Below are positions 10,023 through 30,082 of a DNA stretch of 56,608 bases, one piece after another (positions within the stretch are counted from its first letter, which is position 1; the number at the start of each line of letters is the position of its first letter). The notes beneath the pieces are model-generated. The model did no database searches and was not told where the DNA came from. It worked only from the letters and a program-made list of their open reading frames with translations. This DNA is from Deltaproteobacteria bacterium UBA4796 (lineage in GTDB: Bacteria; Desulfobacterota; Syntrophorhabdia; Syntrophorhabdales; Syntrophorhabdaceae): contig DHGO01000123.1 of the NCBI GenBank assembly GCA_002402795.1, positions 1-56,608 of the forward strand. The letters are read 5' to 3'. Position numbers and translations under genes: made by a program.

Positions 10023-10182
10023 TAAGCCAGCCATAGACTTCTATTCGAACGACTTCGAGATTTCTCTTTAGTTGCCCCGGAAAGAATTCTTGAGGACCTC
10101 CATTTTTTCTTGACTTTTATTTCGAAAACAGGGCAAAAGGGACCGGGAGAAATTCAGTCAGCTTCGGCAGACTCTTCTTCGC

Positions 10183-12622: not shown

Positions 12623-12667
12623 TTCAAGCTTTTTGAATTATACTGGATGTTTTATGAAATAACTATA

Positions 12668-14521: not shown

Positions 14522-15078
14522 GATAGAACCTCCTTTGCTCCCATGTAGCCTGCCTGAAAGATCTCAAGATTCTTTTCAAGGAGTTTTTCTGAAACCCTTT
14601 TTTTAATCGTTCGCTCCACATTTTCCCGTGTATAGGGTTCAATGGATAAGAAGGCGAAGAATCCGAGGAGTGCCATGTTCGCTGCCTGAATCATGCCCTT
14701 TTCTTTTGCAATCCTGTCAGCGTCAACAAGATAACAGGCAAGTGCCCTTTCCTGTGCAAGGGAATAAATCGCATCAGGCAAAGTCTTTCTTTGAGTATTT
14801 ACTAAAGCAATGCCTTCCCGTTTCAGCATTGCGATGTTTCTATAGAATTCACTCTCTTCAAAGGCAAGGATGATATGAGCCCTTTCCCTTCCTATAAGGG
14901 GACTCTTAAAATCACCCACCTTAACAAGGGATACTACAGAGCCACCTCTCTGGCTCATGCCGTATTCGTCCGAGGCAATAGCATTGTGTCCGCTGGCAAT
15001 GGCAGCCTCAATCAAGATGGTCGAGGCAAGAAGAACCCCCCTGCCACCAATGCCTGCGCACACGATTTCAAGTTTCAT
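14518..15078 (-). CDS. iorB: indolepyruvate:ferredoxin oxidoreductase beta subunit
   Basis: 186 aa with the VCAGIGGRGV motif of the 2-oxoacid oxidoreductase gamma/IorB fold. Its stop overlaps the start of the downstream iorA by 4 nt. Confidence 0.75.
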   Translation of the reverse strand: MKLEIVCAGIGGRGVLLASTILIEAAIASGHNAIASDEYGMSQRGGSVVSLVKVGDFKSPLIGRERAHIILAFEESEFYRNIAMLKREGIALVNTQRKTLPDAIYSLAQERALACYLVDADRIAKEKGMIQAANMALLGFFAFLSIEPYTRENVERTIKKRVSEKLLEKNLEIFQAGYMGAKEVLS

Positions 15079-15177
15079 CCATATACCTCATTCAGTATCA
15101 AGTAGTCAGTAGCCAGAATATAGAATAAAAAGGGGCTGTTCACTACATTCTGTACTCTGACTCCTGTATTCTATTGC

Positions 15178-16452
15178 TCATACCATTCCTTTATAGAAAA
15201 CTACGGTCATTTCATCACTATCCTTGAAGCGTTCAATTTCATTAACGTCCTTAAGGTAAAAGATGTTTGTAAAACCCCATCCTTTCAATAGATTCTCAAT
15301 CTCCTGTGCCCTTTTATTCGTCATAATGAGAAGCAAATAGGAAGAATTGTTGTAAAGCGTGTTAATGAACGCAGGCATACCTGAGTGGAAAAAGGCATCC
15401 TCAAAGGTAATGGCAAGGAGCTTCTTTTCAGGGCTGCTCCTTTTTATGCCATGTGCCATGTTGATGGATGATGCAGGTCCAAGAATATCACGTACCACAT
15501 AAAATCCGTACATGGTCTCTTCGTGCTTTTCTTTTGAGTGACCCGCAAAGAAAGGCTCTTTTATAAGTTTTTCTCTATCCCCTATCTGGAGCTCAATCAC
15601 CGGATATTCACCCTCTACTATGTAAAATGTATCCACCTCGCTAATAAATGAACTGACGAGCTTGCGGGGTAAAGGATGAACTGTAGAAAGGGTAAGAATG
15701 CTTTCATCCCCATCAGGAAATGATGAATAGACCATTCTCGTGGTTATAACGCCCCTCTTTCCCTTTATGACTTTCTTATTACCTTCATATGTCTCAAGGT
15801 CTTCCCGAATATTGTTTAGTTTGTCATTGAGTTCTTTGTGGAGAGAAAATCTGAATTGGGGTGTTGCTGCCCATCGGGCAGGATTCCTGACAAACCGTGC
15901 TTCGTGAGTGGTAGGTGGCGAGTGGTGACTGGTGACCGGTGGCTGGTGACCGGTGGCTGGTGATTCCTCAGGTGTGACCTGTATAATAACAGGTATTTCA
16001 TATTTTTCAGAGATGGTGTAGCCAGATGTAACTGCACGGGTAAAATCATCAAGGGTCTCTGTCACAAAGAGTGGCATCTTTGAAAAGAGACCAAGGGGTG
16101 TCACTTCCTCAACGGTATCCCTGATTCCTATGATGAGAAGACCGCCAATAACACCTGTATAGGCAGAACTCATGATCGGGTCCAATGCCTCATATACCCT
16201 TTCAGCTGAAAACATACAGGTATTTCTCTTCCCCGCAATGCTTCCGGTTAAGGCAAGCTCATAGGCTACCTTTTCGTTGATGGGTATTTCTGTATGAAAG
16301 GATGGATACTCTGTTTTCAGTTTCTCAAGGGTGGCTCCAATAATTTTGTGTGTTGTGTATATAAACCTGGAGCCACTATTCAAAAGGACTCTGCAGTATG
16401 GCTCATATATATTGCTCATCTGGTTGCTATACCATGCTTCTAAGAATTTCAA
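15178..16452 (-). CDS. IorA-like paralogue lacking the ferredoxin domain and with a degenerate TPP/Mg motif
   Basis: NEKVAYELALTGSIAGKRNTCMF aligns with iorA NERCAMEVAYGAAIAGKKAACMM. Where iorA has GDSTFFH...IMDNGTTAMTG, this protein reads FEDAFFH...IMTNKRAQ. Carries a heptamer insert (ATGHQPPVTSHHSPPTTH). Confidence 0.6.
   Translation of the reverse strand: MKFLEAWYSNQMSNIYEPYCRVLLNSGSRFIYTTHKIIGATLEKLKTEYPSFHTEIPINEKVAYELALTGSIAGKRNTCMFSAERVYEALDPIMSSAYTGVIGGLLIIGIRDTVEEVTPLGLFSKMPLFVTETLDDFTRAVTSGYTISEKYEIPVIIQVTPEESPATGHQPPVTSHHSPPTTHEARFVRNPARWAATPQFRFSLHKELNDKLNNIREDLETYEGNKKVIKGKRGVITTRMVYSSFPDGDESILTLSTVHPLPRKLVSSFISEVDTFYIVEGEYPVIELQIGDREKLIKEPFFAGHSKEKHEETMYGFYVVRDILGPASSINMAHGIKRSSPEKKLLAITFEDAFFHSGMPAFINTLYNNSSYLLLIMTNKRAQEIENLLKGWGFTNIFYLKDVNEIERFKDSDEMTVVFYKGMV
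15904..15966. repeat. heptamer tandem repeat, 9 units, inside the IorA-like gene
   Basis: GTGAGTG GTAGGTG GCGAGTG GTGACTG GTGACCG GTGGCTG GTGACCG GTGGCTG GTGATTC. Confidence 0.9.
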
Positions 16453-17524
16453 TGCCTTTTATTACGTGTTCCTCCGGTGCTGCAAAGGAGATACGTACAT
16501 TTGATTTTTTCCGTGAAAAGATACTTCCCGGAATGATAAATAGATTCTTCTCCAAGGCTTTTTCTACAAAGGTATCACCATCACCATCAGGCACTTCTGG
16601 AAAGATAAAAAATGCACCCCTTGGCTTTACAACCCTGAATTTGTCTTTCAAGCCTTCGTAAATAAGGTCTCTCTTCCTTTTGTATCCCTCAATGAGAGGG
16701 GCAGTGCTGTAGTCAAGGGCAAAGAGCGCTGCCTTCTGGCCAATGGAGTTGATGCTGCTGAACACATATTGCTGCATGGTAACCATAGTCTGAATAATCT
16801 CTTTGGGCCCTGCAACAAAACCAACCCTCCAGCCTGTCATTGCCCAGGTTTTTGAAAAACCACCAATTGTAAGGGTTCTGTCATAGAGCTGTCCCATATA
16901 AACCCTTTCTTCACCGTCCTCATACATAAAGCGGTCATAGACATCATCAGAGAATACGAGCAGGTTCTTTTCCCTTGCCACCCTTGCAACCATTTCCATT
17001 TCCTTGCGAGAGTACACAATACCTGTGGGATTATTCGGGCTATTAATAAGAATTACCCTCGTCTTATCAGTGATTACCTCCCGTAATTTCTCCTCTTTTA
17101 AAGTAAACGCTGGATAGGTATCTACAAATACCGGTTTTCCACCAAGGAGAAGCACCTGATATTCATAGAGCACAAAGTATGGGTCAGGAATTATCACCTC
17201 GTCCATGGGATCCATGGTCACCATAAGGGCGAGCAGTATACCACCCGTTGCGCCTGCCGTGATAATGACATCCTCACATATGATACCCATTGATTGAAGG
17301 TCATGGAGGAGCCTCTCTCGCAAGGGCATGATACCGCCTGAAGGGGTATACTTATTGAATCCTGCGCGAATCCATTTTATGCCCTCCTCCTTGATAGGGT
17401 CAGGTATATCAAAGTCAGGTTCTCCTATACTCAGATTGATAGGATTCTGTACCTTCCGGGCAAGGTCAAAGATCTTTCTCACGCCTGAAGGTTTTATATT
17501 CTTTACCCTTTCTGAGAGGAACAT
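16427..17524 (-). CDS. class I/II PLP aminotransferase (aspartate/aromatic type)
   Basis: IKPSGVRKIF N-terminus, NPTG, and GFSKTWAMTGWRVGF with the PLP lysine. ATG at 17524 has GGAGG 5 nt upstream. The track start at 17536 is a TTG too close to the RBS. Confidence 0.75.
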   Translation of the reverse strand: MFLSERVKNIKPSGVRKIFDLARKVQNPINLSIGEPDFDIPDPIKEEGIKWIRAGFNKYTPSGGIMPLRERLLHDLQSMGIICEDVIITAGATGGILLALMVTMDPMDEVIIPDPYFVLYEYQVLLLGGKPVFVDTYPAFTLKEEKLREVITDKTRVILINSPNNPTGIVYSRKEMEMVARVAREKNLLVFSDDVYDRFMYEDGEERVYMGQLYDRTLTIGGFSKTWAMTGWRVGFVAGPKEIIQTMVTMQQYVFSSINSIGQKAALFALDYSTAPLIEGYKRKRDLIYEGLKDKFRVVKPRGAFFIFPEVPDGDGDTFVEKALEKNLFIIPGSIFSRKKSNVRISFAAPEEHVIKGIEILRSMV

Positions 17525-17722
17525 GCATGCCTCCAATTATCCATAATGCCTCTGTTTCTTTATAAATACATCAACGATATACTATCAAACATTTTTTTGT
17601 CAAGCTATTTCGCCCTGTTACTCCTCATTAAATTTTAACAAAGAAACAGCAAAAAATATAATTCCACTTGACTTTTAGACGTTCCTTCTGTTACAAAAAC
17701 AGCAAAAAAATAGGAGAATAAT

Positions 17723-18859
17723 ATGCAAAAACGTTATCTTCTTGCACCAGGTCCAACCCAGATACCACCTGAAGTACTGCTTGCTATGGCAGCGCCTATA
17801 ATCCATCACAGGAATCCGCTTTTTGAAGCGATTGTGGAAGAGGTTCGTGGTGGTTTGAAGTACCTCTTCGGTACCAAAAATGAGGTTCTTATCTTTGCCT
17901 CATCAGGTACAGGAGCCATGGAAGGCGCTATAACAAATGTTCTATCTCCAGGAGATAAAGCCATTGTAGTAAGGGCAGGAAAGTTCGGTGAAAGATGGGC
18001 AAATATATGTAAGGCTTATGGTGTGGAGACTATACCTATTGATATCCCCTGGGGCGATAACCTCGATCCTGCTATCATTGAGAAGACCATTAAAGCGAAT
18101 CCTGGTGTAAAGGCTGTCTATACCCAGGCAACAGAGACTTCAACAGGTGCCCGCTTCCCCATCAAAGAGATTGCAGAAATTGTTCAGTCCTATCCTGAAA
18201 CCCTCATGGTTGTCGATGGCATAACAGGTATAGGCGTCTTTGAACTTCCTATGGACGCATGGGGTATTGACATTCTCGTTGGAGGTTCCCAGAAAGCACT
18301 TATGCTTCCTCCAGGTCTTGCCTTTGCAGGCGTAAGCGACAAAGCCTGGGAATTTACAAAGACATCGAAGATTCCCAGATTCTACTTTAACTGGACAAAA
18401 GAGCTTGATAACCTCTTCAAAAATCAGACTAATTTTACTCCTGCCGTCTCTCTTATAGTAGGCTTGCGTGAGTCTTTGCGTATGATCAAACAGGAGGGGC
18501 TTGAGAATGTATATAAACGCATCGATAGTCTTGCCAGGGCAACAAGGGAAGGTGCAATTGCATTGGGTCTTCAGATCTTTGCCAGGAACCCGAGCCCGGC
18601 AGTCACTGCCATATATGCACCACCGGGCATTGATGGTCAGAAGATTTATAAGACTATGTGGCAGAAGTACGGTGTCACAGGTGCTGGAGGTCAGGACCAG
18701 CTCAAGGGAAAGGTCTTCAGGATTGCTACCTTAGGCTATGCAGATAATTACGATGTCATAACTGCTATCGCTGCCCTTGAATTTACACTCAAAGATTTAG
18801 GTTATTCATTCTCCATGGGTAGCGGCGTTGCCGCAGCAATTAAGGCACTAAAAGAATAA
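17723..18859 (+). CDS. class V PLP aminotransferase (phosphoserine/serine-glyoxylate type)
   Basis: 378 aa with GGSQKALMLPPGL carrying the PLP lysine. Lies directly upstream of serA, which suggests the phosphoserine aminotransferase role. Confidence 0.7.
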   Translation: MQKRYLLAPGPTQIPPEVLLAMAAPIIHHRNPLFEAIVEEVRGGLKYLFGTKNEVLIFASSGTGAMEGAITNVLSPGDKAIVVRAGKFGERWANICKAYGVETIPIDIPWGDNLDPAIIEKTIKANPGVKAVYTQATETSTGARFPIKEIAEIVQSYPETLMVVDGITGIGVFELPMDAWGIDILVGGSQKALMLPPGLAFAGVSDKAWEFTKTSKIPRFYFNWTKELDNLFKNQTNFTPAVSLIVGLRESLRMIKQEGLENVYKRIDSLARATREGAIALGLQIFARNPSPAVTAIYAPPGIDGQKIYKTMWQKYGVTGAGGQDQLKGKVFRIATLGYADNYDVITAIAALEFTLKDLGYSFSMGSGVAAAIKALKE

Positions 18860-18870
18860 AGAGGTGAATA

Positions 18871-20451
18871 ATGAAGATACTTATTGCTGACCAGCTCTCA
18901 GATAAGGCAGTTAATATCCTAACAACCCAGGGATTTACAGTGGATATTAAAACAGGTCTTTCCCCGGATACATTGAAAGAAATCATTGGTACCTATGATG
19001 GCCTCATTGTAAGGAGTGCCACCAAAGTTACAAAGGATATTATTAATAAGGCAGATAACCTCAAGGTCATTGGAAGGGCAGGTATTGGTGTAGATAATGT
19101 GGATGTGGTAGCTGCAACAGAGAAGGGTATTATTGTTATGAATACACCCCAGGGAAATGCCCTTGCTGCAGCAGAACATACCCTTGCCTTAATGTTTGCT
19201 GCTGCCCGAAAGATTGCCATTGCAGACAGAACCATGAAAGAAGGTAAGTGGGAGAAAAAGGCATTCGTGGGCATTGAAATCTATGAGAAGGCTTTAGGTG
19301 TTATTGGTATTGGGAATATAGGCTTAATAGTTGCAGAAAAGGCTCTTGCCCTTGGCATGCAGGTCATTGCCTATGATCCCTACATACCCCGGGACTTTGC
19401 CGAAAGGAAAGGTATAACCCTCGTTGATTTTGATACCCTCCTGAAGGAGAGTGATTTTATCACCATCCATGTTCCCCTTGTAAAGGATACGAGAAACCTG
19501 ATCAATAAAGATGCTCTTGATAAAATGAAGAAGGGCGTCATTATTATTAATGCAGCGAGAGGTCCTATTGTGAATGAGAAGGATCTCTATGAGGCGCTGG
19601 AATCTGGTCAGGTTGCGTGTGCTGCCCTTGATGTCTTTGAACAGGAACCCCCTCCAAAGGACAACCCGCTCATCTTATCTGATAAGACCGTATGTACACC
19701 ACACCTCGGTGCATCCACAAGGGAAGCCCAGGATAAGGTTGCTATTGATATTGCCAATCAGATGGTAGATTTCTTTGTGAATGGCGTTATAAAGAATAGT
19801 GTTAATGCCCCTTCAGTATCAAAAGAGGTGGCACGAAAAATCAAACCCTATCTCTCTCTGTCGGAAAAGTTAGGTACCGTTGTTTCTGCTATCAGTGATT
19901 TTCCAGTCGAGGAAATAGATATACAATACATGGGTGGAATCTCTGAAACAGATACCCGCGTACTCACCCAGGCAATCATAAAGAGCGTTCTTTCCCAGAG
20001 AATGGAGGGCATCAACTATGTGAATGCCCCTGCCGTTGCCAAAAGTAGAGAGATAAAGGTAAAAGAGACAAAGATGGACGAACATGAAGATTTTACTTCC
20101 CTGCTTACCATTACCTTACGGGGTGGTGGAAATGAGAATACTGTATACGGAACGCTCTTTGGGAAAAAGGAGCCAAGACTTGTCAAAATAAAAAATATTT
20201 TCCTTGAGGCAGATTTAGGGGAACATATGCTTTTTGTCTACAACTATGACAAACCTGGTGTCATTGCAGGTATTTCCAATGTCTTCTTCTTAAAAGGTAT
20301 AAACATAGGTGATATGCACTTTGGAAGGGAGAGTGCTGGTGGTCTTGCCATTTCCCTACTTGAAGTGGATGTAAAGATAGATGATAGTATTATAAAGGAG
20401 ATTCAGGGGCTTCCAAATATTATCAGTGCCAAGAAGATTGACCTGCCTTAA
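18871..20451 (+). CDS. serA: D-3-phosphoglycerate dehydrogenase with C-terminal regulatory (ACT-type) extension
   Basis: 526 aa. GVIGIGNIGLIVA NAD fold, 2-hydroxyacid dehydrogenase core (PHLGAST), long C-terminal domain. Confidence 0.8.
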   Translation: MKILIADQLSDKAVNILTTQGFTVDIKTGLSPDTLKEIIGTYDGLIVRSATKVTKDIINKADNLKVIGRAGIGVDNVDVVAATEKGIIVMNTPQGNALAAAEHTLALMFAAARKIAIADRTMKEGKWEKKAFVGIEIYEKALGVIGIGNIGLIVAEKALALGMQVIAYDPYIPRDFAERKGITLVDFDTLLKESDFITIHVPLVKDTRNLINKDALDKMKKGVIIINAARGPIVNEKDLYEALESGQVACAALDVFEQEPPPKDNPLILSDKTVCTPHLGASTREAQDKVAIDIANQMVDFFVNGVIKNSVNAPSVSKEVARKIKPYLSLSEKLGTVVSAISDFPVEEIDIQYMGGISETDTRVLTQAIIKSVLSQRMEGINYVNAPAVAKSREIKVKETKMDEHEDFTSLLTITLRGGGNENTVYGTLFGKKEPRLVKIKNIFLEADLGEHMLFVYNYDKPGVIAGISNVFFLKGINIGDMHFGRESAGGLAISLLEVDVKIDDSIIKEIQGLPNIISAKKIDLP

Positions 20452-20561
20452 ACAGATTTTACGCTAAGTTTTTTGAGCCCTTTTGTTCATAACCATTATT
20501 CATGAATGAGGGGCTCATTTACTATTGACACATGATAGCTTTCCTATTATAAAAAGAGTAT

Positions 20562-20647
20562 GCCTGGGTGGCGGAATAGGCAGACGCAAGGGACTTAAAA
20601 TCCCTCGGGGCGCAAGCTCTGTACGAGTTCGATTCTCGTCCCAGGCA
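20562..20647 (+). tRNA. tRNA-Leu (anticodon UAA)
   Basis: Acceptor GCCTGGG/CCCAGGC. Anticodon stem AGGGA/TCCCT with loop CTTAAAA. Long variable arm. T-arm ACGAG-TTCGATT-CTCGT. No encoded CCA. Confidence 0.9.
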
Positions 20648-20692
20648 TTTGGATATACAGTTCAGGCCTGCTCCGAAGGATGTAAATGAGGG

Positions 20693-20697
20693 AGTGG
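20693..20697. repeat. 5-bp target-site duplication AGTGG (right-end copy)
   Basis: AGTGG directly abuts the terminal inverted repeat at 20698. An identical AGTGG abuts the other end at 56584-56588. Confidence 0.7.
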
Positions 20698-20703
20698 TAT
20701 AAC

Positions 20704-20770
20704 TTAACACCTAATTTGAGAAAAAGTAACAGGAGTTTGAGAAAAAGTTAACAGGTAGTTTGAGAAATTT
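20704..20770. promoter_or_regulatory. right-end transposase-binding repeats (three contiguous sites)
   Basis: TTAACACCTAATTTGAGAAAAAG / TAACAGGAGTTTGAGAAAAAG / TTAACAGGTAGTTTGAGAAATTT in direct tandem. The innermost site overlaps the RT stop codon. Confidence 0.7.
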
Positions 20771-21803
20771 TACCGCTCAAAATTAGGTATTTCAAACACA
20801 GATTTGCTCCTCTTTTTACATTAGCATGTTGACAGTGTCCCAACCATGATGATAATGAGCATCTTACATCGGAAAGATTAATTAATCCCTCTTTATATGC
20901 CTTTGAAAACCTTTTAAAACGCTTTGTGGCGCGAATAAGACTGCTCTTTCGTAAAAGTATATTATTATGCCATATTCTATAGCCCAGAAAATCAATACCT
21001 CGACTCACAGGGTAGATATCGCTCTTAGGGTTAAGGTTGAGCTTAAGATGACTGTTCAGAAACAGAGATATTTCTCTTTTAAGACGGTGCAGTTCTTTAT
21101 GATCTCCATTAAATATAAGAAAATCATCCATATATCTGATGTAATATTTCACCTTTAAAACATGTTTTATGTATTGATCCAGCTCATTCAAATAAAGATT
21201 GGCGCCCCACTGGGAGATTAGATTACCAATGGGCATGTTCTTTGATTCAGGATCGTCCCTATCAAACGTATTATTAAAAACAATCCGATTAAAGAGCCAC
21301 ATGGTTTCTTTACATTTTATTTTTTGAGCGATGATCCGTAGCATTATATGATGGTTAATGGAAGGAAAAAATTTTGTTACATCGCATTTTAAACAATAGA
21401 CCTTCCCCCATTCTTGCTGTGACCTTCTCAGAAATTCAACGGTTCTCGTGACTCCCGCATGGGTACCCTTATTTATTCTACATGCGTATGAGTCATAAAT
21501 AAAGAAGCTATTCCAAATTGGCTCCACGATGTTCATGATTGCATGATGGACTATCCGGTCTTTAATTGGTGATACATAAATAATCCTTTTTTTCGGCTCG
21601 TAGAGGGTAAATGTCCGGTATGGACTCGGGGTATAAGTTTTATTAATCAGCTCCCCTTGAAGGTTAATTAAGTTTTCTTCCAGGGCATCCTTATATTGAA
21701 GGATATCTCCGTAGTACCGTCTGCCCTTTGAAACCTTATAAAGGGCAAGGTTAAGGTTCTCTAAATCACAAATCTTTTCATATAGGTTACCATATCTCCT
21801 CAT
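20748..21803 (-). CDS. DGR reverse transcriptase
   Basis: 351 aa with a YMDD box (YIRYMDDFLIF) and the DGR-type motif PIGNLISQWGANLY ([LIV]GxxxSQ). Lies directly downstream of the TR. Confidence 0.9.
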   Translation of the reverse strand: MRRYGNLYEKICDLENLNLALYKVSKGRRYYGDILQYKDALEENLINLQGELINKTYTPSPYRTFTLYEPKKRIIYVSPIKDRIVHHAIMNIVEPIWNSFFIYDSYACRINKGTHAGVTRTVEFLRRSQQEWGKVYCLKCDVTKFFPSINHHIMLRIIAQKIKCKETMWLFNRIVFNNTFDRDDPESKNMPIGNLISQWGANLYLNELDQYIKHVLKVKYYIRYMDDFLIFNGDHKELHRLKREISLFLNSHLKLNLNPKSDIYPVSRGIDFLGYRIWHNNILLRKSSLIRATKRFKRFSKAYKEGLINLSDVRCSLSSWLGHCQHANVKRGANLCLKYLILSGKISQTTC

Positions 21804-21965
21804 TATATTGCCGCCGCTCCAGATGGCTTTCGGGACTCCCTACTAACCACCTGGGCAGCATTTTTATTTTTGCCGATCCATGCGGATGCGACAAGGATCA
21901 TAACCTGTACAGATTATGGACTGTCTTAATAGGCAATGCCTATTAAGCTTCTCCCGATATCTGTG

Positions 21966-22066
21966 CTGCGCGGGCACCGATGTTCCAGTTGTAGTTCGAC
22001 GGCGTGTTGTTCAAGTTCAACGCGCCAGGGCATTGAGCACCGTTGTTACAGTTGCCCCCGCGAAGG
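21966..22066 (-). repeat. DGR template repeat (TR)
   Basis: 101 bp, 87/101 identical to 23496-23596. The coding strand holds 24 adenines, including 9 AAC codons when read in the VR frame. Lies 8 bp downstream of the avd stop. Confidence 0.9.
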
Positions 22067-22073
22067 TTTCCAG

Positions 22074-22418
22074 CTATGACCCTGAAATCTTCTTGATCCA
22101 TCCACCCACCATCTTGCCCAGCTCGATAACCATTTTCTCCCAGTTTTCGTATTTATTAAAGGGGAGAAATCCCAGTTCCTTTGCCAGGCGTATCTTTGTC
22201 TTTAAGTGAGCGATCTCGATATCCAAATCCTGTAGGGTTGTTTTTTTAAAATATTTCTTTTGCGACCTGATTATCAGCTTATCGATCTCGTACATTGTGA
22301 GGCGTATCTCTGCCGATAGGGTATGCCGCTCACTTTTTGGGAACTGCTTTAGGCAGATATACCCATATTTCATCATGTCTTCATGTTTTTGTTTAACAAT
22401 AAGCGGTTCCATACCCAT
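22074..22418 (-). CDS. avd: Avd-like DGR accessory protein (four-helix-bundle family)
   Basis: 114 aa, helical and basic, with the FPKSERHTLSAEIR motif typical of the Avd / 23S-rRNA-IVS protein family. Located between target and TR. Confidence 0.75.
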   Translation of the reverse strand: MGMEPLIVKQKHEDMMKYGYICLKQFPKSERHTLSAEIRLTMYEIDKLIIRSQKKYFKKTTLQDLDIEIAHLKTKIRLAKELGFLPFNKYENWEKMVIELGKMVGGWIKKISGS

Positions 22419-22456
22419 TGATTATTAGCACCGACAAAAGAGAGCTGTCAAGTTAT

Positions 22457-23236
22457 TTAAGTATTTTTTGGGGTAAAATTCATGATCAGGAGTTCGGTAG
22501 CTCTGACCTTATTGCTTGCACCCGCGCATGAATATGTAGTAGTGACCTCTTCGATGGCAAATTCTTTGTAAGTCTCCCTGATTTCAGGTGTATCGTTAAT
22601 GGACATGATAAATTTACCCTGAATGGCATTTAGAATATTTCTAAGCTTAGCAAAATCATCTCTATGAAAAATTCCCTTACCATACCAATCCTCGCGTTTA
22701 TAATAGGGAGGGTCGAGGTAGAAAAAGGTGTGTGAGCGGTCAAAACGTTCAATAAATTTTTCATAACGCATATTTTCTATGTAGACCCTGGAGAGTCTTA
22801 GATGTGCCGCTGAAAGTTCCTCTTCAACCCGGAGAAGATTGAAATTCGAACGTCTGGTGGTGTTAATAGAAAACGAGAAGTTGTCGATCCGGCTGGAATA
22901 GCCATTTTTGAGCAAGTAGTAAAACCTTACGGCTTTTTGGATGTCAGTGAGCGAGTCAGGATTTTCGACTTTAAAGCGTTCAAATTCATCTCTGGCCACG
23001 AGGATCCACTTTAAGTAACGAATGAACTCCTCAAGATGATTTTTTATTACCCGATAGAGGGTAACCAGATTAGAATTAATGTCATTAATGGTCTCAATTT
23101 CCGATTCTTCCTTTTTGAAGAGGAGCCAGGCAGCGCCGGCAAAAACTTCACAATAGCATGTGTGCTGCGGCACAAGCGGGATAATTTTGTTTGCCAGTAA
23201 TGATTTCCCCCCGAGATAACTTAAAAAACTTTTCAT
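22457..23236 (-). CDS. dam: Dam-family N6-adenine DNA methyltransferase
   Basis: Starts MKSFLSYLGGKSLLANKI... with AAGGAGGG upstream. EVFAGAAWL (AdoMet motif I) and the DPPY catalytic motif. The 40-codon track extension to 23356 is unlikely. Confidence 0.8.
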   Translation of the reverse strand: MKSFLSYLGGKSLLANKIIPLVPQHTCYCEVFAGAAWLLFKKEESEIETINDINSNLVTLYRVIKNHLEEFIRYLKWILVARDEFERFKVENPDSLTDIQKAVRFYYLLKNGYSSRIDNFSFSINTTRRSNFNLLRVEEELSAAHLRLSRVYIENMRYEKFIERFDRSHTFFYLDPPYYKREDWYGKGIFHRDDFAKLRNILNAIQGKFIMSINDTPEIRETYKEFAIEEVTTTYSCAGASNKVRATELLIMNFTPKNT

Positions 23237-23433
23237 GGAAAACCCTCCTTCGTTACATTGATTTTGTGGGATTTTCTTGCTACACTTTAGCTGCCCAGAT
23301 CTCGGTCGGGGAATAGGCGGCGGATGGTAGCGGGTTATCCCGTCATCTCGTAGCATGGGATGGTTAAGGGAGGGCTTTCTCCCTGAACTACTGTCCGCTG
23401 GTCTTTAACTAATCTATATCATGTATGCTCACC

Positions 23434-23465
23434 CCTGACCCCCACCCTTTCGGGCGGGGGTCAGG
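23434..23465 (-). promoter_or_regulatory. GC-rich hairpin downstream of VR (DGR target-recognition hairpin and/or terminator)
   Basis: CCTGACCCCCACCC-TTTC-GGGCGGGGGTCAGG: 13 bp plus one A.C mismatch. The loop is GAAA on the coding strand. Lies 17 nt after the target stop codon. Confidence 0.7.
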
Positions 23466-23481
23466 TTTCAGTTACCAGGGC

Positions 23482-24786
23482 TCAGGGTACAAGTACTGCG
23501 CGGGCACCGATGTACCAGGCGTAGTCCGAGGGCGCGTTGATCAAGGCCAACGCGCCAGGGCACCGAGCACCGGAGTCACAGTTGCCCCCGCGAAGGGATA
23601 TTCTTTCATCGGTAGCGACATACCAAAACCCCTGACCATCGAATCCTCCTTGACCAGAGGGCACAGTGCTTGCAGGGATTCCATGTTTTTTTAGCAGGTT
23701 TTCAGTGCGTAGAGATGCCACGCTTTGCCCTGATGTAACACCATCGACAGTCAGTCCTGTATCTACGAATGATGCATGTCCGTATCCATCTGTTGGATCT
23801 GTAAAAGGATTTACTGTTTTCAAGGCAGTATATATACCATTGGCATTCAATCTCAATCCGTCAGCAAATTCCCATCGGTTTCCACAAAAATCGCTTACAG
23901 GAATTTCCCATAGTTTGCTCCCCCCACCTGCAAGGGAGCCACCCCAAGCAGCGTCCAGCGTGGGGTCTTTTAGCCCTATATCGTTAGGGTCAAGATGCCA
24001 CTGCGGGATATGGTTAGAGGCATTGTAACCATTGGTGTTGCCTCTCAATAGCCAACGATTGATACGTGTCCACAGCCACAACTCATTCCAGTGTGCGTCA
24101 GTCATCAATCCACCTTTGCCTGCCCAACCTTCATAAGCCGCTCCTTGTCCTAAATGCAAAAATCCACCTTTATCAAAACGGGACTTTAGATATTGTCTGA
24201 AATGAGCGATTGTCTGGGCTACCCTCGGCACTTTCAAGGGCTGGCTAATATAACATTTTCTTCCTGTGTCACTCCCATTGCATACATCCCCAGCAGCTAT
24301 CATTGTAGCATTACTGCTTGAGCATAGATACATGTCAACCCAATACCCTCCCATCTCATTCTCCCATAAGACAGAAGAGTGTTCCCAATGAGTAGGAGTA
24401 TCACCTGTAGCTATAAAGCACTGTCCAGAGGCATTTTGTGGCGCACCTACATTTGTGAAGTCATCATCAGCTTTAAGTTCCTCAATCCTATAATGCCTGC
24501 CAACAGTAAGTGCCCCTGATGTCAAGCGTAGCCTTTTTCCAAGAACCTCATAATCTGTGTTTTCTGTCCATCCAGTTTGAATCTGTTCAGGATGGAAGAA
24601 GTCCCCTACCGTGCCTGATGGAGTAGCAACTTTTGCATTATCAGTCAATGCCCTACAAGCAGTGAATGGGGGTATCCACTTCATGTAGGAATAGAAGCCG
24701 TCTACGTCAACGAAAATACCGATAAAGGTATCAAACTTACTCATCTGCTCTCTTATCCATAAGCTATTTCTTTTAACTATTGCCAT
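23482..24786 (-). CDS. DGR target: receptor-binding / tail-fibre protein with C-terminal variable region
   Basis: 434 aa. The C-terminus LRGGNCDSGARCPGALALINAPSDYAWYIGARAVLVP is encoded by VR. The gene lies at the distal end of the tail module. Confidence 0.8.
   Translation of the reverse strand: MAIVKRNSLWIREQMSKFDTFIGIFVDVDGFYSYMKWIPPFTACRALTDNAKVATPSGTVGDFFHPEQIQTGWTENTDYEVLGKRLRLTSGALTVGRHYRIEELKADDDFTNVGAPQNASGQCFIATGDTPTHWEHSSVLWENEMGGYWVDMYLCSSSNATMIAAGDVCNGSDTGRKCYISQPLKVPRVAQTIAHFRQYLKSRFDKGGFLHLGQGAAYEGWAGKGGLMTDAHWNELWLWTRINRWLLRGNTNGYNASNHIPQWHLDPNDIGLKDPTLDAAWGGSLAGGGSKLWEIPVSDFCGNRWEFADGLRLNANGIYTALKTVNPFTDPTDGYGHASFVDTGLTVDGVTSGQSVASLRTENLLKKHGIPASTVPSGQGGFDGQGFWYVATDERISLRGGNCDSGARCPGALALINAPSDYAWYIGARAVLVP
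23496..23596 (-). repeat. DGR variable repeat (VR)
   Basis: Lies at the 3' end of the target gene, ending 14 nt before its stop. Differs from TR at 14 positions, 13 of which are TR adenines. Confidence 0.9.
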
Positions 24787-24788
24787 GT

Positions 24789-25049
24789 CTATGCCTCCTT
24801 ATATTCTTCTAAATCAATCAAAACTGCCTCTATTTGATTTTCAGGTATGCAAAAAGACAGCCAATCTTCGTTTGCATACTCGCCTATAAATTTATCTGTT
24901 TTTTTATACTCTTCAGGCACGAGGCATACCTTTATGGGCTGGCATACTTTCAGTTCAAAAAATCCATTCAATTCAGAATCCCTCGTAATAACAGGAGCGT
25001 CTTGATTACATTTCTTCAATTTTTCTATCAAGTCTTTTACCTTCATCAT
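24789..25049 (-). CDS. hypothetical phage protein
   Basis: 86-aa ORF tightly packed between the tail genes and the DGR target. Confidence 0.5.
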   Translation of the reverse strand: MMKVKDLIEKLKKCNQDAPVITRDSELNGFFELKVCQPIKVCLVPEEYKKTDKFIGEYANEDWLSFCIPENQIEAVLIDLEEYKEA

Positions 25050-25357
25050 GCCTCCTTTGGTAAATCAAAATATCTTATTTTTATTTTATTTAAATCCAAC
25101 GGTTCAGGTTCGCTTCTAATCTCTTCACCTGATTTTTCATTAATGTTAATATCAGCTTTAGGATAAGGGATTTCCATCTCGCATAGATGCCAATAACAGT
25201 CATACATGGGGTTCACAACCAGTTTTAAATCATTATCAAGATATATCCGCACCATCTGACCTTGATATAACGATAAGTCAATTTCCTGTGCAGAAACTAT
25301 GCCCTTCTCACATTCAAATCCATCAAGTTGCAATTTAGAGCCACTTAATTTAAGCAT
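25046..25357 (-). CDS. hypothetical phage protein
   Basis: 103-aa ORF with a 4-nt overlap with the downstream ORF. Confidence 0.5.
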   Translation of the reverse strand: MLKLSGSKLQLDGFECEKGIVSAQEIDLSLYQGQMVRIYLDNDLKLVVNPMYDCYWHLCEMEIPYPKADININEKSGEEIRSEPEPLDLNKIKIRYFDLPKEA

Positions 25358-25368
25358 TTATACCCCCT

Positions 25369-25827
25369 TTATGCTATGTTGGATAGCTCAATATCTGCTG
25401 TAATACCACCGATTCCGCTGTTATAGATGACACATGTATTTGCAGATTTGACGACAGATATTTCTCCAATCATACCAAGTTTCATATCTTTAGGCATTAC
25501 CTTGATGAGATAGTTCGTATCCCCCTTATTATGTGTTACAGTTGCACCATTCTGCCCATCGAGCGTTACCGCCCCGGTCATAAACACTTCTCCATTACTT
25601 CCAGGCACTGCCGAGGGCCATGTAGTCTTGCCTACTCCTCCTAAAAATATCTGCATAAATGCGCCCTGTGCATATGCCTTTGAAGGACTACCTACACGGC
25701 CCGTATTATGTGATGATGGGTCCTGGATGTTTTGTGTCTGATGCGCATTAGCATTCTTATCATGGATATTATTAATGCGTTCATCAAACAGGACATATAA
25801 AACTGTGTTAGGAAATATATCAGGCAT
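25369..25827 (-). CDS. hypothetical tail-associated protein
   Basis: 152-aa ORF directly after the tail-tip gene. Confidence 0.5.
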   Translation of the reverse strand: MPDIFPNTVLYVLFDERINNIHDKNANAHQTQNIQDPSSHNTGRVGSPSKAYAQGAFMQIFLGGVGKTTWPSAVPGSNGEVFMTGAVTLDGQNGATVTHNKGDTNYLIKVMPKDMKLGMIGEISVVKSANTCVIYNSGIGGITADIELSNIA

Positions 25828-25839
25828 AATTACCTCCTT

Positions 25840-28800
25840 TTAGGAATATACTTCATCACGATATACTATTCCTCTGATTGTTGAGAACATCGTCTCAGCG
25901 CTTCGTTTAATGCTTTTTGTCCTGTATATCGTGTTGATTTCGCTCGTTTTAGCGAGGATATAATTGCATTCATAAGGTTTATTATTATCTATTGTTAACC
26001 CTGTCGGTTTTGGAACTTCCGTAATGCTGTAACCCGTAAGCACACCTTCCCAGGTATAGACAACCCCATCAGCCCCCCATACACGAAGGCGGTATGTAAC
26101 ACCGCTTTCTATTTCAATCGATTTGTCGAGTATAACCTTATCTCCTGCATCATTTGTGCCCAGTATCCTTCCACTGAAAGCAAAATCATTAACCTGTGAT
26201 TGGAAGGCAAAACAATTGCCAACTTCAACCTCAATGGATTCACTGCCTGCGTCAAATTCTATCTCATGGTCAATATAGCGGTTATACTTAAGGAGTCGTC
26301 GCAAATATCTTCTTGCCTCTGATTCACGTGTAATGCCCACAAGCGGAGAGAGGGTTTTCACGATTGGATATTCTCCGGATTGTATATCTTCTTCACTTAT
26401 TGTTTTTTCATCATAATTCAAATTTTCATCCAGATAGGCAACCACAAGCACATTTGCCCTGTCCCGTTGCGGTATTGGATAGACATGGACATTTTTGGTG
26501 TTCCCTTCACCGAATACCTGGGCAGGTGAGCTAACCGGCTTATCTATAATGATTTTATATTTATCTCCATATGGGATAATCTGAGCTGATGCCTGCTGTA
26601 CTATTCTTGTTACCAACCCCCATAAATCTTCGCTAAAATCAATCACTGCATCGAATTTATGGCGCTGTTCGCCATCTACAAGTTCATTGCAATCTGCATC
26701 AAGTTCCGCGAATGATTCCCAATCAATATGATTTGAGGTAATCCTGCCATGAGAGCCTTCAATTAATACTTTTGCGATTGTCCAGGCATAGCTATCCGTG
26801 GGCGCATAGTTTTCATAAAAGACCATAACCTGCGTATCCGCTGGTATTTCTTCCGTTGACTGCAAATATAACCTTGTTCTTGCGCCGACGATCTCCCAGG
26901 TGTGAACACGGTTGAAATATTTTGTGAGCAGCCTATCGGGCTGTGCAAAACCAGGCGAATCCATTCGCACAAGCCAATAGTAAAAAATTGACGGTGCGGA
27001 TGGGTTAGGAAGTTGTGCATCGATGAGAATCTTTCTCATACCGTCCACAAGGATATTATTAATCGTATTACCTGTGCCTGTTACTATACCTTCATCGGCA
27101 TAGACCGTTGTATCATATCTATCCCCTACTGGTGGGACTGAAAGGGGCTGTCCTATGCCGATGGCAGTGATTTTAGGACGTGAACCTGACAATCTATCTG
27201 TTGCCATAGCGGAGACGCCAATCAGGGCGTGATTTGGATATGCAAGTTCATCGGTTATGATTTCAGAATAAGTCTTCAGGAATATGTCATCACACCAATA
27301 AATGGATGTCTGGTCTACGGTTGTGCGCCATATTCTAAAGTTATATGTATCTTCTTCTAAGTCCAACAATTCAATTATCTTTGTTACCGCCTCAAGTGGA
27401 TTTGAGGCATTGCCGCTAATGGTGACTGATTGCGCCTGTACTGAGAGATAGAGAGTATCTATTGCGAAGGCGTTAATATTATGTGTACCATACGGATTCG
27501 TACAACAATCATTTGCCCAATCAATTCGCACTTGATATTTGCCGGTCGCAAGTCCTGATATGACAATATCCCATGAACCGTCTGCCAAATATCCATAGTA
27601 ACAAGCGCCAACCTCATAGGTCCCATGCAATATCCAGGAAGATGCTCCTTCTCTGCGGTAATAGACTCTATAGCGAGACCACGTGAAGGTTGTAGTCTCG
27701 TCAATTGTATGATAACTAATCAAACGAAATCTGATTGCATTTGTATCTATATTTGTGTCAAAGCCCCTCCAGATTCTTCCTGAAAATCCTGATGTATTAT
27801 CTGTGACATTCCCAGCTTGCCATGAAAAATCACCCAGGACGAGATTCCATGTCTCTTCAGTATGTTTTTTATATTGAATACGAAAGACAACATCTCTCGC
27901 CTGCGGAGAACTGCCTACTATTTCGTATAGACCACGAGGCGCAGATATAACTAATCTGCAACCTGTGATGTCTTTTTTCGATGTGAATGCAATATAATTT
28001 GTGGGGTTATCTGCGCTGGCATCATATTGGACTTTAGCGCCCGATAAATATTGAGTATATATTTTTCTGAATGTATCGATAATGGTCTGCTCATCATCTC
28101 CAGGGCGCAAAGCAACCTGTACCTGGCCATAATATTGACTTTCTGTATCATTAATACAAACATCGTCAAATCTTGTAATGCGATGCGCTACAGGACATAT
28201 AAGCATATTCAGATATTCATTATTGTTTGCATCGTACGATACATGCTCGGATATAATCTGTCCGCCCACTTTCATTGTCCCGAATAGCCAGGGCTTTGCA
28301 AGTCCAGGTCGATGGTCGTTAACAACGCCATCCCAGGTATAATGGCGCGAATCCTTGAGGTTGTTATCCCAGCCTGAGAGGGAAGGCATTTCAGGGGATG
28401 GTATAGGAAAAAGCGAATCAACAACCATGCTGCCAACAATCGATATTGCCATAGATGCGCCTATGGCGCCTGCAAGCGCCCAGCCTCCAAGGCTTGCAAG
28501 GTTTGCCCATCCTGCAATGCCTGCACCAGCCAGCATGGGTGGAAAAACAAAGGCAGCAACAGCAGTAAGAAGTCCGCCAATTGCCCTGCCAACACTTCCA
28601 CCGCCTGCTATAGGAAGTATTTCTCCTCCGTCTGCCTTATATCGATAAAAAGAGATTATTACATGATCATATTTTTTTAGTTTTGATAAGACTACTCCTT
28701 TATTTTCATCACATCGCAAAAGCTGCATATCAGGCGTAATTACTCCAAGATGCAACCCTATATTAGAGCGCATCAGGGCAACCGCATATGGTTCAGGATT

Positions 28801-29022
28801 AACAATCTTTTCCCAGTTTGCTCCTTCCTTTTGAACCAATTCGGCAGATAATTCCATTTCATTTCTTATTGGAAGGGTAATATTAATGCCTTTATAGACC
28901 TCACGGACAAGACCATAGCAGTTCAAGCCTTTTGAGCGGGCCTGGCCGCCCAAGGCATAAGATATGCCTATGAGATTTGCCCAATCTTTATGTGTTTCGG
29001 CTATGATTTCACGTCTATACAT
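25840..29022 (-). CDS. tail-tip protein: NlpC/P60 domain + Gly/Ala-rich hydrophobic linker + gpJ-like host-specificity region
   Basis: N-terminus has GLNCYGLV (Cys) and LHLGVI (His) of the NlpC/P60 type. Residues around 140-205 are a GGGSVGRAIGG...AGAIGASMAI hydrophobic stretch. The rest has FGTMKVGGQII, as in the gpJ N-terminus. 1060 aa. Confidence 0.6.
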   Translation of the reverse strand: MYRREIIAETHKDWANLIGISYALGGQARSKGLNCYGLVREVYKGINITLPIRNEMELSAELVQKEGANWEKIVNPEPYAVALMRSNIGLHLGVITPDMQLLRCDENKGVVLSKLKKYDHVIISFYRYKADGGEILPIAGGGSVGRAIGGLLTAVAAFVFPPMLAGAGIAGWANLASLGGWALAGAIGASMAISIVGSMVVDSLFPIPSPEMPSLSGWDNNLKDSRHYTWDGVVNDHRPGLAKPWLFGTMKVGGQIISEHVSYDANNNEYLNMLICPVAHRITRFDDVCINDTESQYYGQVQVALRPGDDEQTIIDTFRKIYTQYLSGAKVQYDASADNPTNYIAFTSKKDITGCRLVISAPRGLYEIVGSSPQARDVVFRIQYKKHTEETWNLVLGDFSWQAGNVTDNTSGFSGRIWRGFDTNIDTNAIRFRLISYHTIDETTTFTWSRYRVYYRREGASSWILHGTYEVGACYYGYLADGSWDIVISGLATGKYQVRIDWANDCCTNPYGTHNINAFAIDTLYLSVQAQSVTISGNASNPLEAVTKIIELLDLEEDTYNFRIWRTTVDQTSIYWCDDIFLKTYSEIITDELAYPNHALIGVSAMATDRLSGSRPKITAIGIGQPLSVPPVGDRYDTTVYADEGIVTGTGNTINNILVDGMRKILIDAQLPNPSAPSIFYYWLVRMDSPGFAQPDRLLTKYFNRVHTWEIVGARTRLYLQSTEEIPADTQVMVFYENYAPTDSYAWTIAKVLIEGSHGRITSNHIDWESFAELDADCNELVDGEQRHKFDAVIDFSEDLWGLVTRIVQQASAQIIPYGDKYKIIIDKPVSSPAQVFGEGNTKNVHVYPIPQRDRANVLVVAYLDENLNYDEKTISEEDIQSGEYPIVKTLSPLVGITRESEARRYLRRLLKYNRYIDHEIEFDAGSESIEVEVGNCFAFQSQVNDFAFSGRILGTNDAGDKVILDKSIEIESGVTYRLRVWGADGVVYTWEGVLTGYSITEVPKPTGLTIDNNKPYECNYILAKTSEINTIYRTKSIKRSAETMFSTIRGIVYRDEVYS

Positions 29023-29650
29023 AGCCCACGCCTCCCGGTATGCCGGGAAAAGAGTTCAATCTCAAGACATTCCCGTGCCTTTTACAGTCCACTCTATTAT
29101 GATTGCATGTATCCGGACTGCCTGCTACAAATCCTACGGGCTGAATATATGTGCCGTCTGACTTTTGAATCCAGCAGCCCTTGCCTTTATAGCGGTTCCA
29201 GCAGAAATCAGTAATGAATTTTTCATGCAATAGCTTTGCAAGAAATGGATTGAATATACCGACGCTCAGGGCAATTGACTGTTCTGAAATATCATCTATC
29301 CCTATGATCTCAAGGGTCTCTTCATAAATTATTGTATCGTTCTCAATGCTGTATTGTTTGAAGGTTACAGAGTATCCTTCTACCTCGCGGGAGGTTTTGA
29401 ATTTATCGGAAAGCATTCCTTCTATGTTCGAGATTATCAGCCTCATTGTTGAAACCTGGCCGCTTGAATCTTCCCGAAGCTCCTCAAGCATCACAGGGAA
29501 AGGTATATATATATTGCCATTGACTTCAATTTCTTCAGGGTTTGGACTAAGATAATATGTGCCATCATCAAGGGTGATTTCAAATAATGCAACCCATGTG
29601 GATGGCTTATTGAATTTGAGGTGCTCATTGTCTGGAATTGTGCGTGGCAT
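29015..29650 (-). CDS. minor tail protein, lambda gpL / BR0599-like
   Basis: 211 aa with a Cys-rich C-terminus (CWNRYKGKGCW...DTCNHNRVDCKRHGN) ending in FPGIPG. Position after the gpM-like gene. Confidence 0.55.
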   Translation of the reverse strand: MPRTIPDNEHLKFNKPSTWVALFEITLDDGTYYLSPNPEEIEVNGNIYIPFPVMLEELREDSSGQVSTMRLIISNIEGMLSDKFKTSREVEGYSVTFKQYSIENDTIIYEETLEIIGIDDISEQSIALSVGIFNPFLAKLLHEKFITDFCWNRYKGKGCWIQKSDGTYIQPVGFVAGSPDTCNHNRVDCKRHGNVLRLNSFPGIPGGVGYV

Positions 29651-29662
29651 ATTTTTCCTTTT

Positions 29663-30082
29663 TTAATCCGTTGGAGGTGTCCCAACGACTTCTGAACCCA
29701 TGGATTCAAAGGTAAGGCTGCATGTCCATAGGAAACCAGGATGTTTGGGGTCCTCTGCCATTTCATCACTGGTTATAAGACACAGGATGCCAATCGGATA
29801 TATCTTACCATCTGGTTTTGGTTTCATAGATGTAGGAAAAATAAAATAGAAAGTCTCTGATTTATACTCATCGATAAAGGCGGCCAGAAGGTTCTTTTCT
29901 GCATCTGTAAGCATCTCAAATTCTATCTGTATTTTATATTGTACTGTTGGGGATTGCTCTCTTTGCTGTATATAGCCCGCTGGCGTGCGAAGCCTTACCT
30001 TAGGCATAACCTTCGTAACTTTATACCCACCAAATGGAATTATGGGCAATTCATATTCTATATTATCAAGCACGCCGCTCAT
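29663..30082 (-). CDS. minor/distal tail protein (gpM-like position)
   Basis: 139 aa, immediately downstream of the tape-measure gene with a 4-nt overlap. Confidence 0.45.
   Translation of the reverse strand: MSGVLDNIEYELPIIPFGGYKVTKVMPKVRLRTPAGYIQQREQSPTVQYKIQIEFEMLTDAEKNLLAAFIDEYKSETFYFIFPTSMKPKPDGKIYPIGILCLITSDEMAEDPKHPGFLWTCSLTFESMGSEVVGTPPTD

Follow-up and report, generated by a model that had tools for sequence, protein, structure and literature searches.

We analysed a stretch of 56,608 nt labelled Deltaproteobacteria bacterium UBA4796 (contig DHGO01000123.1 of assembly GCA_002402795.1; hereafter the window). Our main finding is that its positions 20698-56583, 35,886 bp from terminus to terminus when both flanks are read and checked by script, are an intact-looking Mu-type transposable siphovirus prophage that ends in a complete diversity-generating retroelement (DGR) attached to its target gene, with the cassette lying inside the transposon; we assign this reading a probability of about 85%. 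The open reading frame (ORF) map and domain scans show that the prophage is read mainly on the minus strand, and in this orientation its last 4.1 kb hold, in order, the target gene with the variable repeat (VR), a hairpin, a D12-class methylase gene, the gene for bAvd (accessory variability determinant), the template repeat (TR), an RNA of the RT-14 type and the reverse transcriptase (RT) gene. An initial annotation, made from the letters of this DNA, had placed an RT, a TR, avd, a Dam-type methylase and a variable gene in the last 4 kb before the right end, and Pfam and a repeat search found each of them there at the same positions. The prophage host is an uncultured anaerobe and probably a deltaproteobacterium.

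The retroelement and its target

The RT (351 aa; minus strand, 20748-21803) was identified by Pfam RVT_1 (E 1.4e-21) and PHROG 1423 (E 3e-129). Its top database matches are DGR RTs, Brt of the Bordetella phage BPP-1 among them, and its identity is 38.7% to Brt, 43% to the RT of Vibrio phage ZX4290 and 42.7% to that of Bacillus phage BalMu-1. On the same strand lie bAvd (114 aa; 22074-22418; Pfam PF22296, E 5.6e-30, 104 bits) and the TR of 104 nt (21963-22066), which was recognised by the repeat search and by its adenine-specific mismatches to the VR (minus strand, 23493-23596); the latter forms the 3' end of the 434-aa target ORF and ends 11 nt ahead of the stop codon. Among the 104 positions, TR and VR show 15 mismatches, of which 13 are at TR adenines, where about 3.6 would be expected by chance because the TR has 25 A in 104 nt; read in frame, the differences fall mostly on AAC (Asn) codons of the TR, as is typical of DGR templates. 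Between TR and RT, Rfam assigns a structured RNA of the family RT-14 (RF02921; minus strand, 21814-21965) with a score of 48.6 bits (E 1e-4), where the gathering score is 48.1, and the same family was matched at the equivalent place in one relative (L173, see below); this RNA would be the spacer part of the DGR RNA. A DGR-clade RT, an adenine-biased TR/VR pair at the 3' end of a gene and an Avd, three of the features by which a DGR is recognised, are present.

The target gene (434 aa; minus strand, 23482-24786) carries the VR at its C-terminus, lies directly beyond the gpJ-like region and has a PHROG 'tail protein' match at its C-terminus, and its product is a probable DGR variable protein that probably acts as a distal tail or receptor-binding protein. 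An AlphaFold model built with 31 homologues (pLDDT 71, pTM 0.77) gave TaqVP chains (5vf4) as its only significant matches among PDB structures, with E values of 3e-5 to 2e-4 and a probability of 1.0, and a search of PDB with the target sequence gave no match. The 93 homologues of the target are without a Pfam domain and come from metagenome-assembled genomes of anaerobic environments labelled Deltaproteobacteria, Syntrophales, Nitrospiraceae and Methylomirabilota; one of them, 83% identical, is labelled 'Deltaproteobacteria bacterium', and this label is the sole hint at the host, as a cluster look-up with the host proteins yielded no taxonomy.

The late genes would end in a host-recognition module, composed of a J-like tip protein, three small ORFs and the 434-aa variable protein with its complete DGR. 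By analogy with established DGR biology, the TR and the RT-14-like spacer would be transcribed together, a complex of RT and Avd would make cDNA from this transcript with misincorporation opposite template adenines, and the cDNA would replace the VR, so that about 13 codon positions of the ligand-binding face would be recoded.

Between the target and avd lies the gene of a D12-class (Dam-type) N6-adenine DNA methyltransferase (minus strand, 22457-23356; Pfam PF02086, E 1.4e-31; PHROG 56, E 7e-86), with a DPPY motif at residue 215. Gene callers applied to identical contigs begin it at an internal ATG and give 259 aa (about 22457-23236), and the true start is probably this internal ATG near 23236. 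Four relatives (L006, L170, L175 and L176) have no methylase between target and avd, and the gene is therefore an inserted extra gene and no component of the DGR. Its most likely role is to protect the phage DNA against restriction by methylation. GATC occurs 49 times in the phage, against about 134-142 expected (about 0.35), and 59 times in the host flank, against about 78-85 (about 0.7); the depletion in the phage fits pressure by GATC-directed restriction and is no proof of it. The word CTAG is found 0 times in the 35.9-kb phage, where about 44 would be expected, and once in the host flank, where about 25 would be.

About 17 nt past the target stop there is a G+C-rich hairpin with a 14-bp stem and a GAAA loop (minus strand, 23434-23465; fold of -39.1 kcal/mol, z -4.5), which could be a DGR target-recognition hairpin, a terminator, or both. 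Near-identical G+C-rich hairpins were noticed at 23441-23461, after the target, and at 45468-45488, after gpG and at the end of an inverted gene block described below. We rejected a DGR-specific reading of the hairpin after the VR on account of this second copy, and because of it the hairpin may be merely a terminator.

Ends of the prophage and the join with the RT gene

The prophage is bounded by a 5-bp target-site duplication, AGTGG, whose right copy is at 20693-20697 and left copy at 56584-56588, as found by reading the sequence and by script. Three sites of the ACAGGTAGTTTGAGAAA type are present at each end. At the right, attR-like end (20698-20778, plus strand), the putative MuA-binding sites R1, R2 and R3 are contiguous, with TTTGAGAAA cores at 20715, 20736 and 20759 and thus spacings of 21 and 23 bp. 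At the left, attL-like end (56420-56583, minus strand), L1 (56558-56583) is terminal, and L2 (core 56473-56481) and L3 (56420-56450) are separated from it by a spacer, lying 85 and 127 nt further in. Contiguous right sites together with an L1 set apart from L2 and L3 are the arrangement of attR and attL in Mu. The terminal inverted repeat (20698-20723 and 56558-56583) has 26 nt with 85% identity, and a perfect 31-mer shared by R3 (20748-20778) and L3 (56420-56450), identical at 100%, is the longest inverted repeat across 36 kb. The core motif has 5 matches in the window against 0.7 expected, and a count of at least 5 was reached by 0 of 100 shuffles. The exact 22-nt pattern of the end sites gave zero matches in IMG/VR and in the JGI metagenomes.

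These ends enclose a gene set of the Mu type, and the initial assignment to a Mu-like transposable phage was borne out by MuA, a MuB-like ATPase, Gam, GemA, the Mu portal, MuF, gpG, gp36 and the 5-bp duplication, to which a small terminase of the DUF1804 type can be added. Of the features that characterise the Mu-like transposable phages (proposed 'Saltoviridae'), a MuA-type DDE transposase, a MuB-like ATPase, the ends and multiple insertion sites were found here, with the variety of insertion sites being seen in the relatives; the exact phage of the window was found at one site, in three assemblies.

The RT gene runs into the transposon end. As had been read from the sequence at the outset, the RT stop codon (20748-20750) and the preceding ten codons, encoding LSGKISQTTC, lie within the innermost repeat R3, and no spacer remains between cassette and transposon end. 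R3 has its 31-nt partner at the opposite end of the element, which places the cassette within the transposon. When the C-termini of the RTs were compared, conservation extended up to ...L(I/V)LS and was followed by lineage-specific tails. In three relatives (L173, L007 and L169) with RTs 83-90% identical to that of the window, one residue past the conserved part is followed by exactly two end sites (50 nt); the phage of the window has a third end site, and its RT frame is 7 codons longer. RT abuts or overlaps the end sites in every Mu-type relative examined. We read the overlap of RT and R3, which would have arisen from one extra site and involves no conserved residues, as compaction.

Relatives in metagenomes and viromes

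We gathered relatives by RT searches of metagenomes and viromes and obtained eight related lineages with sequence past the RT, in all of which the RT is the last phage gene. Four of them (L007/L172, L169, L173/L174 and L171) have RTs 68-90% identical to that of the window and end sites of the TCTCAAAC type. Of these, the first three have two TCTCAAAC(C/T)ATCTGTC sites after the RT stop and a terminus ...GTTATA; L171 has a single TCTCAAAC(C/T)ATCTGTC site after the stop and a terminus ...TTTACAC; and beyond these four ends there are four mutually unrelated host flanks. L175 has a truncated mfd after the RT, and then surA and uvrA, the mfd gene being interrupted. As the RT is terminal in eight lineages and the four flanks differ, the ends are correct and the cassette is no separate insert. 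The initial annotation had mentioned two outcomes that would speak against its view, and neither was encountered: we saw no relative with the DGR outside the terminal repeats, the RT being the last gene inside the end sites, and a separate element beside the phage is contradicted by the different host flanks of the relatives and by the pairing of R3 with L3 across the element.

Copies identical to the phage of the window were found in three independent assemblies. A diverged copy at the same insertion site was also found (L003; ENA ERZ27315071, compared with window positions 13500-31500), in which the host flank, RT, avd and most of the methylase gene are 100% identical to the window, and inward of about window position 23200 the identity is 76-94%, with the target gene diverged most. 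This copy is either a recombinant (mosaic) prophage or a chimeric assembly of two co-existing variants, with the breakpoint in the methylase gene. We considered it as evidence of DGR activity and rejected it in this role, on the grounds of 7 non-adenine VR differences and of a fall in identity, from 100% to about 80%, within the methylase gene.

Several of the lineages carry reduced or rearranged right ends. L007/L172 has at 9905-10798 an RT fragment only, 86% identical and without residues 1-79; avd, TR and VR are absent, and a 288-aa helix-turn-helix protein lies ahead of the fragment. This DGR has decayed, with the portion next to the end sites retained. In L173 (4024-5852 and 11142-11308), a 28-repeat CRISPR array directly adjoins a 5-kb right-end remnant that contains a MuF-domain protein, gpG, avd, TR and the frameshifted RT of L173/L174, and a group II intron starts 37 bp past the phage terminus. 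L171 has at about 1740-9347 an element of about 7.6 kb with Mu-type sites at both ends, ordered as repressor and early-gene homologues, homologues of the 152-aa and 103-aa ORFs of the window, a DGR target and the RT; MuA, MuB, structural genes, a detectable TR/VR pair and a matching target duplication were not found in it, and it is a deletion derivative or mini element. A fusion of a MuF domain with a toxin-like domain, together with gpG, is located between the J-like gene and avd in L007 (6438-7763), L169 (5890-8154) and L173 (5892-8156), the toxin-like domain being a PBECR2 nuclease in L007 and a DRAT-like ADP-ribosyltransferase in L169. In L169 and L173, no VR was found within 10 kb of the TR.

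The neighbourhood of tRNA genes deserves a separate description. In the window, a host tRNA-Leu(taa) gene (20561-20648, plus strand; ARAGORN, and 57 bits with the Rfam tRNA model) lies outside the phage with its 3' end 50 bp beyond the right terminus. In four lineages, namely the window, L006, L170 and L176, a tRNA gene that points towards the RT gene lies immediately beyond the phage end, those flanking the latter three being tRNA-Thr(cgt) at 11241-11312 in L006 and at 2274-2345 in L170, and a cut-off tRNA at 3702-3756 in L176. These three are without end sites of the TCTCAAAC type, and they may be tRNA-integrating phages with the same terminal DGR module, or the adjacency may reflect target choice. 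Insertion targeted to tRNA genes was rejected as a trait of the Mu-type lineage, because only one of the five with TCTCAAAC-type ends adjoins a tRNA.

Searches with other parts of the phage returned few relatives. A megablast search of 50,697 phage records with 24 kb of the phage gave zero nucleotide matches, and the J-like tail protein had no relative in IMG/VR. MuA found in IMG/VR only two short contigs at 54% identity, which are without right ends, and the top identity of the RT among GTDB species representatives was 50%, so that the representative of the host species is without this phage.

Comparison with known phages

The gene order was compared with those of Mu, B3, D3112 and Hankyphage, as the initial annotation had proposed. 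Hankyphage (Bacteroides phage p00, BK010646) is, like the phage of the window, a Mu-type transposable siphovirus with 5-bp duplications and with MuA and MuB at the left end. It has an inverted packaging block (11824-17107), in which terminase, portal and MuF run against the other late genes, as in the window, and its DGR, in the order of a target with C-terminal VR, a small Avd-like ORF, TR and RT, likewise lies past the tail genes at the right end. Both phages also have an N6-adenine methylase of the D12 class in this terminal region. The two differ in that Hankyphage has four genes after the RT (two hypothetical genes, ThyA and the methylase, which is last), whereas in the window the RT is last; in the size of the target, 2245 aa against 434 aa; and in the host phylum, Bacteroidota against a probable deltaproteobacterium. 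Only 4 of the 41 window proteins match p00, at 24-27% identity (RT 27%, portal 26%, MuA 24%), and the phage of the window shares the architecture of Hankyphage without being related to it in sequence at the genus or family level. Random integration of Hankyphage with 5-bp repeats has been reported (Benler et al., 2018; PMC6199706), and its DGR was shown to be active, with de-repression inducing replicative transposition (PMC12135933).

The isolate most similar in sequence is Vibrio phage vB-Vv-ZX4290 (PV485168), a Mu-like siphovirus of the B3/D3112 style (RT 43%, Avd 50%, MuF 36%, TerL 30%). Its last genes encode the tail tip, a 465-aa protein, Avd and RT, and 300 bp lie between the RT and the end of the virion record, which includes host DNA; this phage differs from the phage of the window in that the cassette has no methylase and the head genes are not inverted. 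Bacillus phage BalMu-1 (NC_030945) is also transposable and has a target of the FGE/SUMF1 type, Avd, TR and RT past the tail genes and near the right end, but its tail is of the myovirus type (PBSX-like), and a holin and an endolysin follow the RT, so that the DGR is not terminal. Mu-like phage Mushu has an Avd-type DGR (PMC5883640), and Mu-like prophages of Firmicutes with DGRs were described by Toussaint (2013; Res Microbiol 164:281), as cited in PMC5883640.

The combination of a DGR with a transposable phage had initially been called rare rather than unprecedented. The precedent of Hankyphage was correctly named, but the combination is less rare than this wording implies, in view of ZX4290, BalMu-1, Mushu and, as far as the citation of Toussaint (2013) allows, the prophages of Firmicutes. 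The layout of DGR and methylase on transposable phages is already known, recurrent and published, and the phage of the window is a new, distant example of it, in which the overlap of RT and R3 and the methylase within the cassette are minor variations. The example is well delimited, with exact ends, target duplication and a full site map, and it adds a new host group, an uncultured anaerobe far from the cases in gut Bacteroides, Firmicutes and Vibrio. The layout of the Hankyphage type (inverted packaging block, terminal DGR and D12 methylase) recurs despite very low sequence identity, and this recurrence supports the view that the right end of Mu-type phages is the usual place of modules for host range and DNA modification. 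The current understanding is unchanged by it, and its main use is in annotation and in surveys of the contents of attR.

Phage Mu itself had initially been said to carry the Gin-invertible G segment and mom at this end, and this holds for the last 5 kb of the Mu record; in detail, S/U, the G segment, gin, com and mom occupy the last 5.3 kb, and mom ends 115 bp from the terminus. Compared with the window, this is an equivalent slot with two inferred tasks in common, change of a receptor-binding protein and adenine modification. The mechanisms differ: Mu uses two-state site-specific inversion and makes acetamido-adenine, whereas the phage of the window is predicted to use RT-driven rewriting of codons and N6-methyladenine. 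A tblastn search with Gin, Mom, Com, S and U gave zero matches in the window, and no inverted repeat pair brackets its fibre region. The further claim of the initial annotation, that unrelated modules seem to perform the same tasks at the same place, stands for the unrelatedness, as homologues of these five Mu genes are absent from the window; the common tasks are putative, and the common place is most simply explained by synteny. The DGR and methylase would be a functional analogue of the G segment, gin and mom of Mu and not their homologue, and the analogy of tasks, covering host-range variation and adenine modification, appears reasonable.

Synteny probably accounts for the position at the right end, since in transposable phages the late genes close with the receptor-binding gene and DGRs adjoin their targets; a DGR next to the closing receptor-binding gene therefore occupies the slot of the G segment, gin and mom of Mu. 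This explanation is supported by B3 and D3112, in which tail genes are last, by Mu, in which S/U are in the last region, and by the P2-like phage ACA1, whose DGR directly follows the antireceptor gene, mid-genome in the tail module. The right ends of B3 and D3112 have tail or tail-fibre genes without cargo. As to whether gin and a DGR occur together, gin is absent from the whole genomes of the window phage, Hankyphage and the Vibrio phage and from the right-hand 12 kb of BalMu-1, all of which have a DGR; Mu has gin and no DGR; and in B3 and D3112 neither is annotated in the last 6.5 kb or so.

In BPP-1, the DGR (mtd-avd-TR-brt) has the cassette order and components seen in the window; its VR encodes the C-terminal part of a distal tail protein and is followed by a G+C-rich hairpin. 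BPP-1 differs in being a non-transposable podovirus whose cassette has no methylase, and Mtd matches the target model weakly (rank 11). N6-adenine methyltransferases at the mom position of Mu are known from FluMu and Pnme1 (Drozdz et al., 2012; PMC3299994); these enzymes are near-nonspecific, whereas the methylase of the window belongs to the D12 (Dam-type) family and lies inside the DGR cassette.

Alternative explanations

Several points weigh against our reading of the prophage and its terminal DGR. Transposase binding at R1-R3 and L1-L3 is predicted from the sequence, and R3 may be a recent duplication without function, because the closest relatives have two sites past the RT stop. Current activity of the DGR is putative, and the VR of L003, the only diverged copy at the same site, has 7 non-adenine mismatches to its TR, which is identical to that of the window. 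The proposed tail-fibre role of the target is based on gene position and a weak PHROG match; the TM-score of its model to TaqVP is only about 0.4, and pLDDT is below 50 at residues 398-424, the VR region. The GATC specificity of the methylase is an assumption taken from its family.

Among other explanations, the one that survives best, although we think it unlikely, is that transposable phages reserve their right end for cargo that serves host range and anti-restriction, and that DGR and methylase were selected there for reasons tied to the end and not by passive synteny; for example, this DNA could be packaged last, late transcription could read through into it, or it could be coupled to the binding of transposase. 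Modification genes do occur at the extreme right end of Mu, FluMu, Pnme1, Hankyphage (with its DGR, ThyA and D12 methylase) and the phage of the window, and the above-mentioned contact of RT with the end sites in all Mu-type relatives is in its favour. On the other hand, the methylase of the window is internal to the DGR and not at the very end, lysis genes follow the DGR in BalMu-1, B3 and D3112 are without such cargo, and the non-transposable ACA1 has its DGR next to the target, which explains the location without any property of the end.

Slightly less credible, and likewise unlikely in our view, is the idea that the join of DGR and transposon end is functional and not just compact. In one form of it, the cassette from target to RT together with the right end would be a portable 'end module' that recombines among phage backbones; this would fit the conserved RT sequence stopping exactly at the start of the lineage-specific end sequence, and it would fit cassettes with 60-82% identical RTs being last in phages with different ends, three of which adjoin tRNA genes. 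In another form, occupancy of R3 by transposase, or replicative transposition, would gate RT expression or cDNA integration, and if this were true, hypermutation of the tail protein would be tied to the lytic burst.

We consider it quite improbable that the prophage or its DGR is a decaying remnant, with the RT/R3 overlap as an accident of erosion. Decay evidently happens among the relatives, since L007/L172 keeps only an RT fragment and has lost avd, TR and VR, the RT of L173/L174 is frameshifted in a remnant abutting a CRISPR array, and the L171 element of about 7.6 kb has both ends without MuA or MuB. In the window, however, the DGR ORFs are all full-length, as are about 40 phage ORFs, the ends and target duplication are intact, the TR/VR differences are adenine-specific, and identical copies are present in the three independent assemblies.

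That 20698-24786 is a separate mobile element or bacterial DGR island beside the prophage is hardly believable: although the DGR module and the remainder of the phage form a mosaic, as L003 illustrates, and L170 has an RT 82% identical to that of the window with wholly different sequence after it, adjoining tRNA-Thr, the 5-bp duplication and inverted end sites enclose the full 35.9-kb unit including the DGR, R3 within the RT gene forms a perfect pair with L3 35.6 kb away, the target gene carries on the tail operon, the RT lies within the phage ends at four other insertion sites among relatives that share the type of end site, and no recombinase or repeats were found at the borders of the 4-kb segment.

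Other genes of the prophage

The MuA-type transposase (720 aa; minus strand, 52305-54467) was identified by Pfam Mu-transpos_C (E 7e-12) and HTH_Tnp_Mu_1 (E 5e-11), each of which passes its Pfam cut-off, and is 24-25% identical to transposases of the D3112 group across 86% of its length. Near it lies the MuB-like AAA+ ATPase gene (minus strand, 51224-51907; Pfam AAA_22, E 8e-18; TniB, E 4.5e-7), and the ORF map places a further ORF of 131 aa in this block (within 51224-54467, minus strand). Gam, GemA and a Bro-N protein were located by the domain scans inward of the MuA and MuB genes. No integrase, resolvase or invertase domain was found by Pfam among the scanned ORFs of the window.

Small terminase, large terminase, Mu portal, MuF and gpG, all assigned by Pfam, form a block on the plus strand (40773-45465), opposite to every other late gene and diverging from the scaffold and capsid genes; no inverted repeats flank this block. 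The late genes after it encode gp36, a cell-wall hydrolase, a tail terminator, a tape-measure protein and L-like and J-like tail proteins. The J-like protein, a Lambda-J-like central tail fibre or tip protein of 1060 aa (minus strand, 25840-29022; PHROG 31, E 2e-65; Pfam Phage-tail_3), is encoded upstream of the cassette, and between its gene and the target lie three small ORFs (24789-25827), including those of 152 aa (25369-25827) and 103 aa (25046-25357).

At the left end, the contig stops 25 bp past the phage terminus (56584-56608) and thus 20 bp past the AGTGG copy; such a break is to be expected where an element occupies more than one site in the sampled population. Inward of this end, an S24-peptidase repressor of the CI/LexA type (plus strand, 55455-56150; Pfam Peptidase_S24, E 3.8e-21) is divergent from the early operon. 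Just upstream of the start of the repressor gene, at window positions 55409-55456, there is a perfect tandem array of 4.4 copies of TTATTTCGCAG, with more TTTCGCAG copies nearby; the tandem array is a probable operator array.

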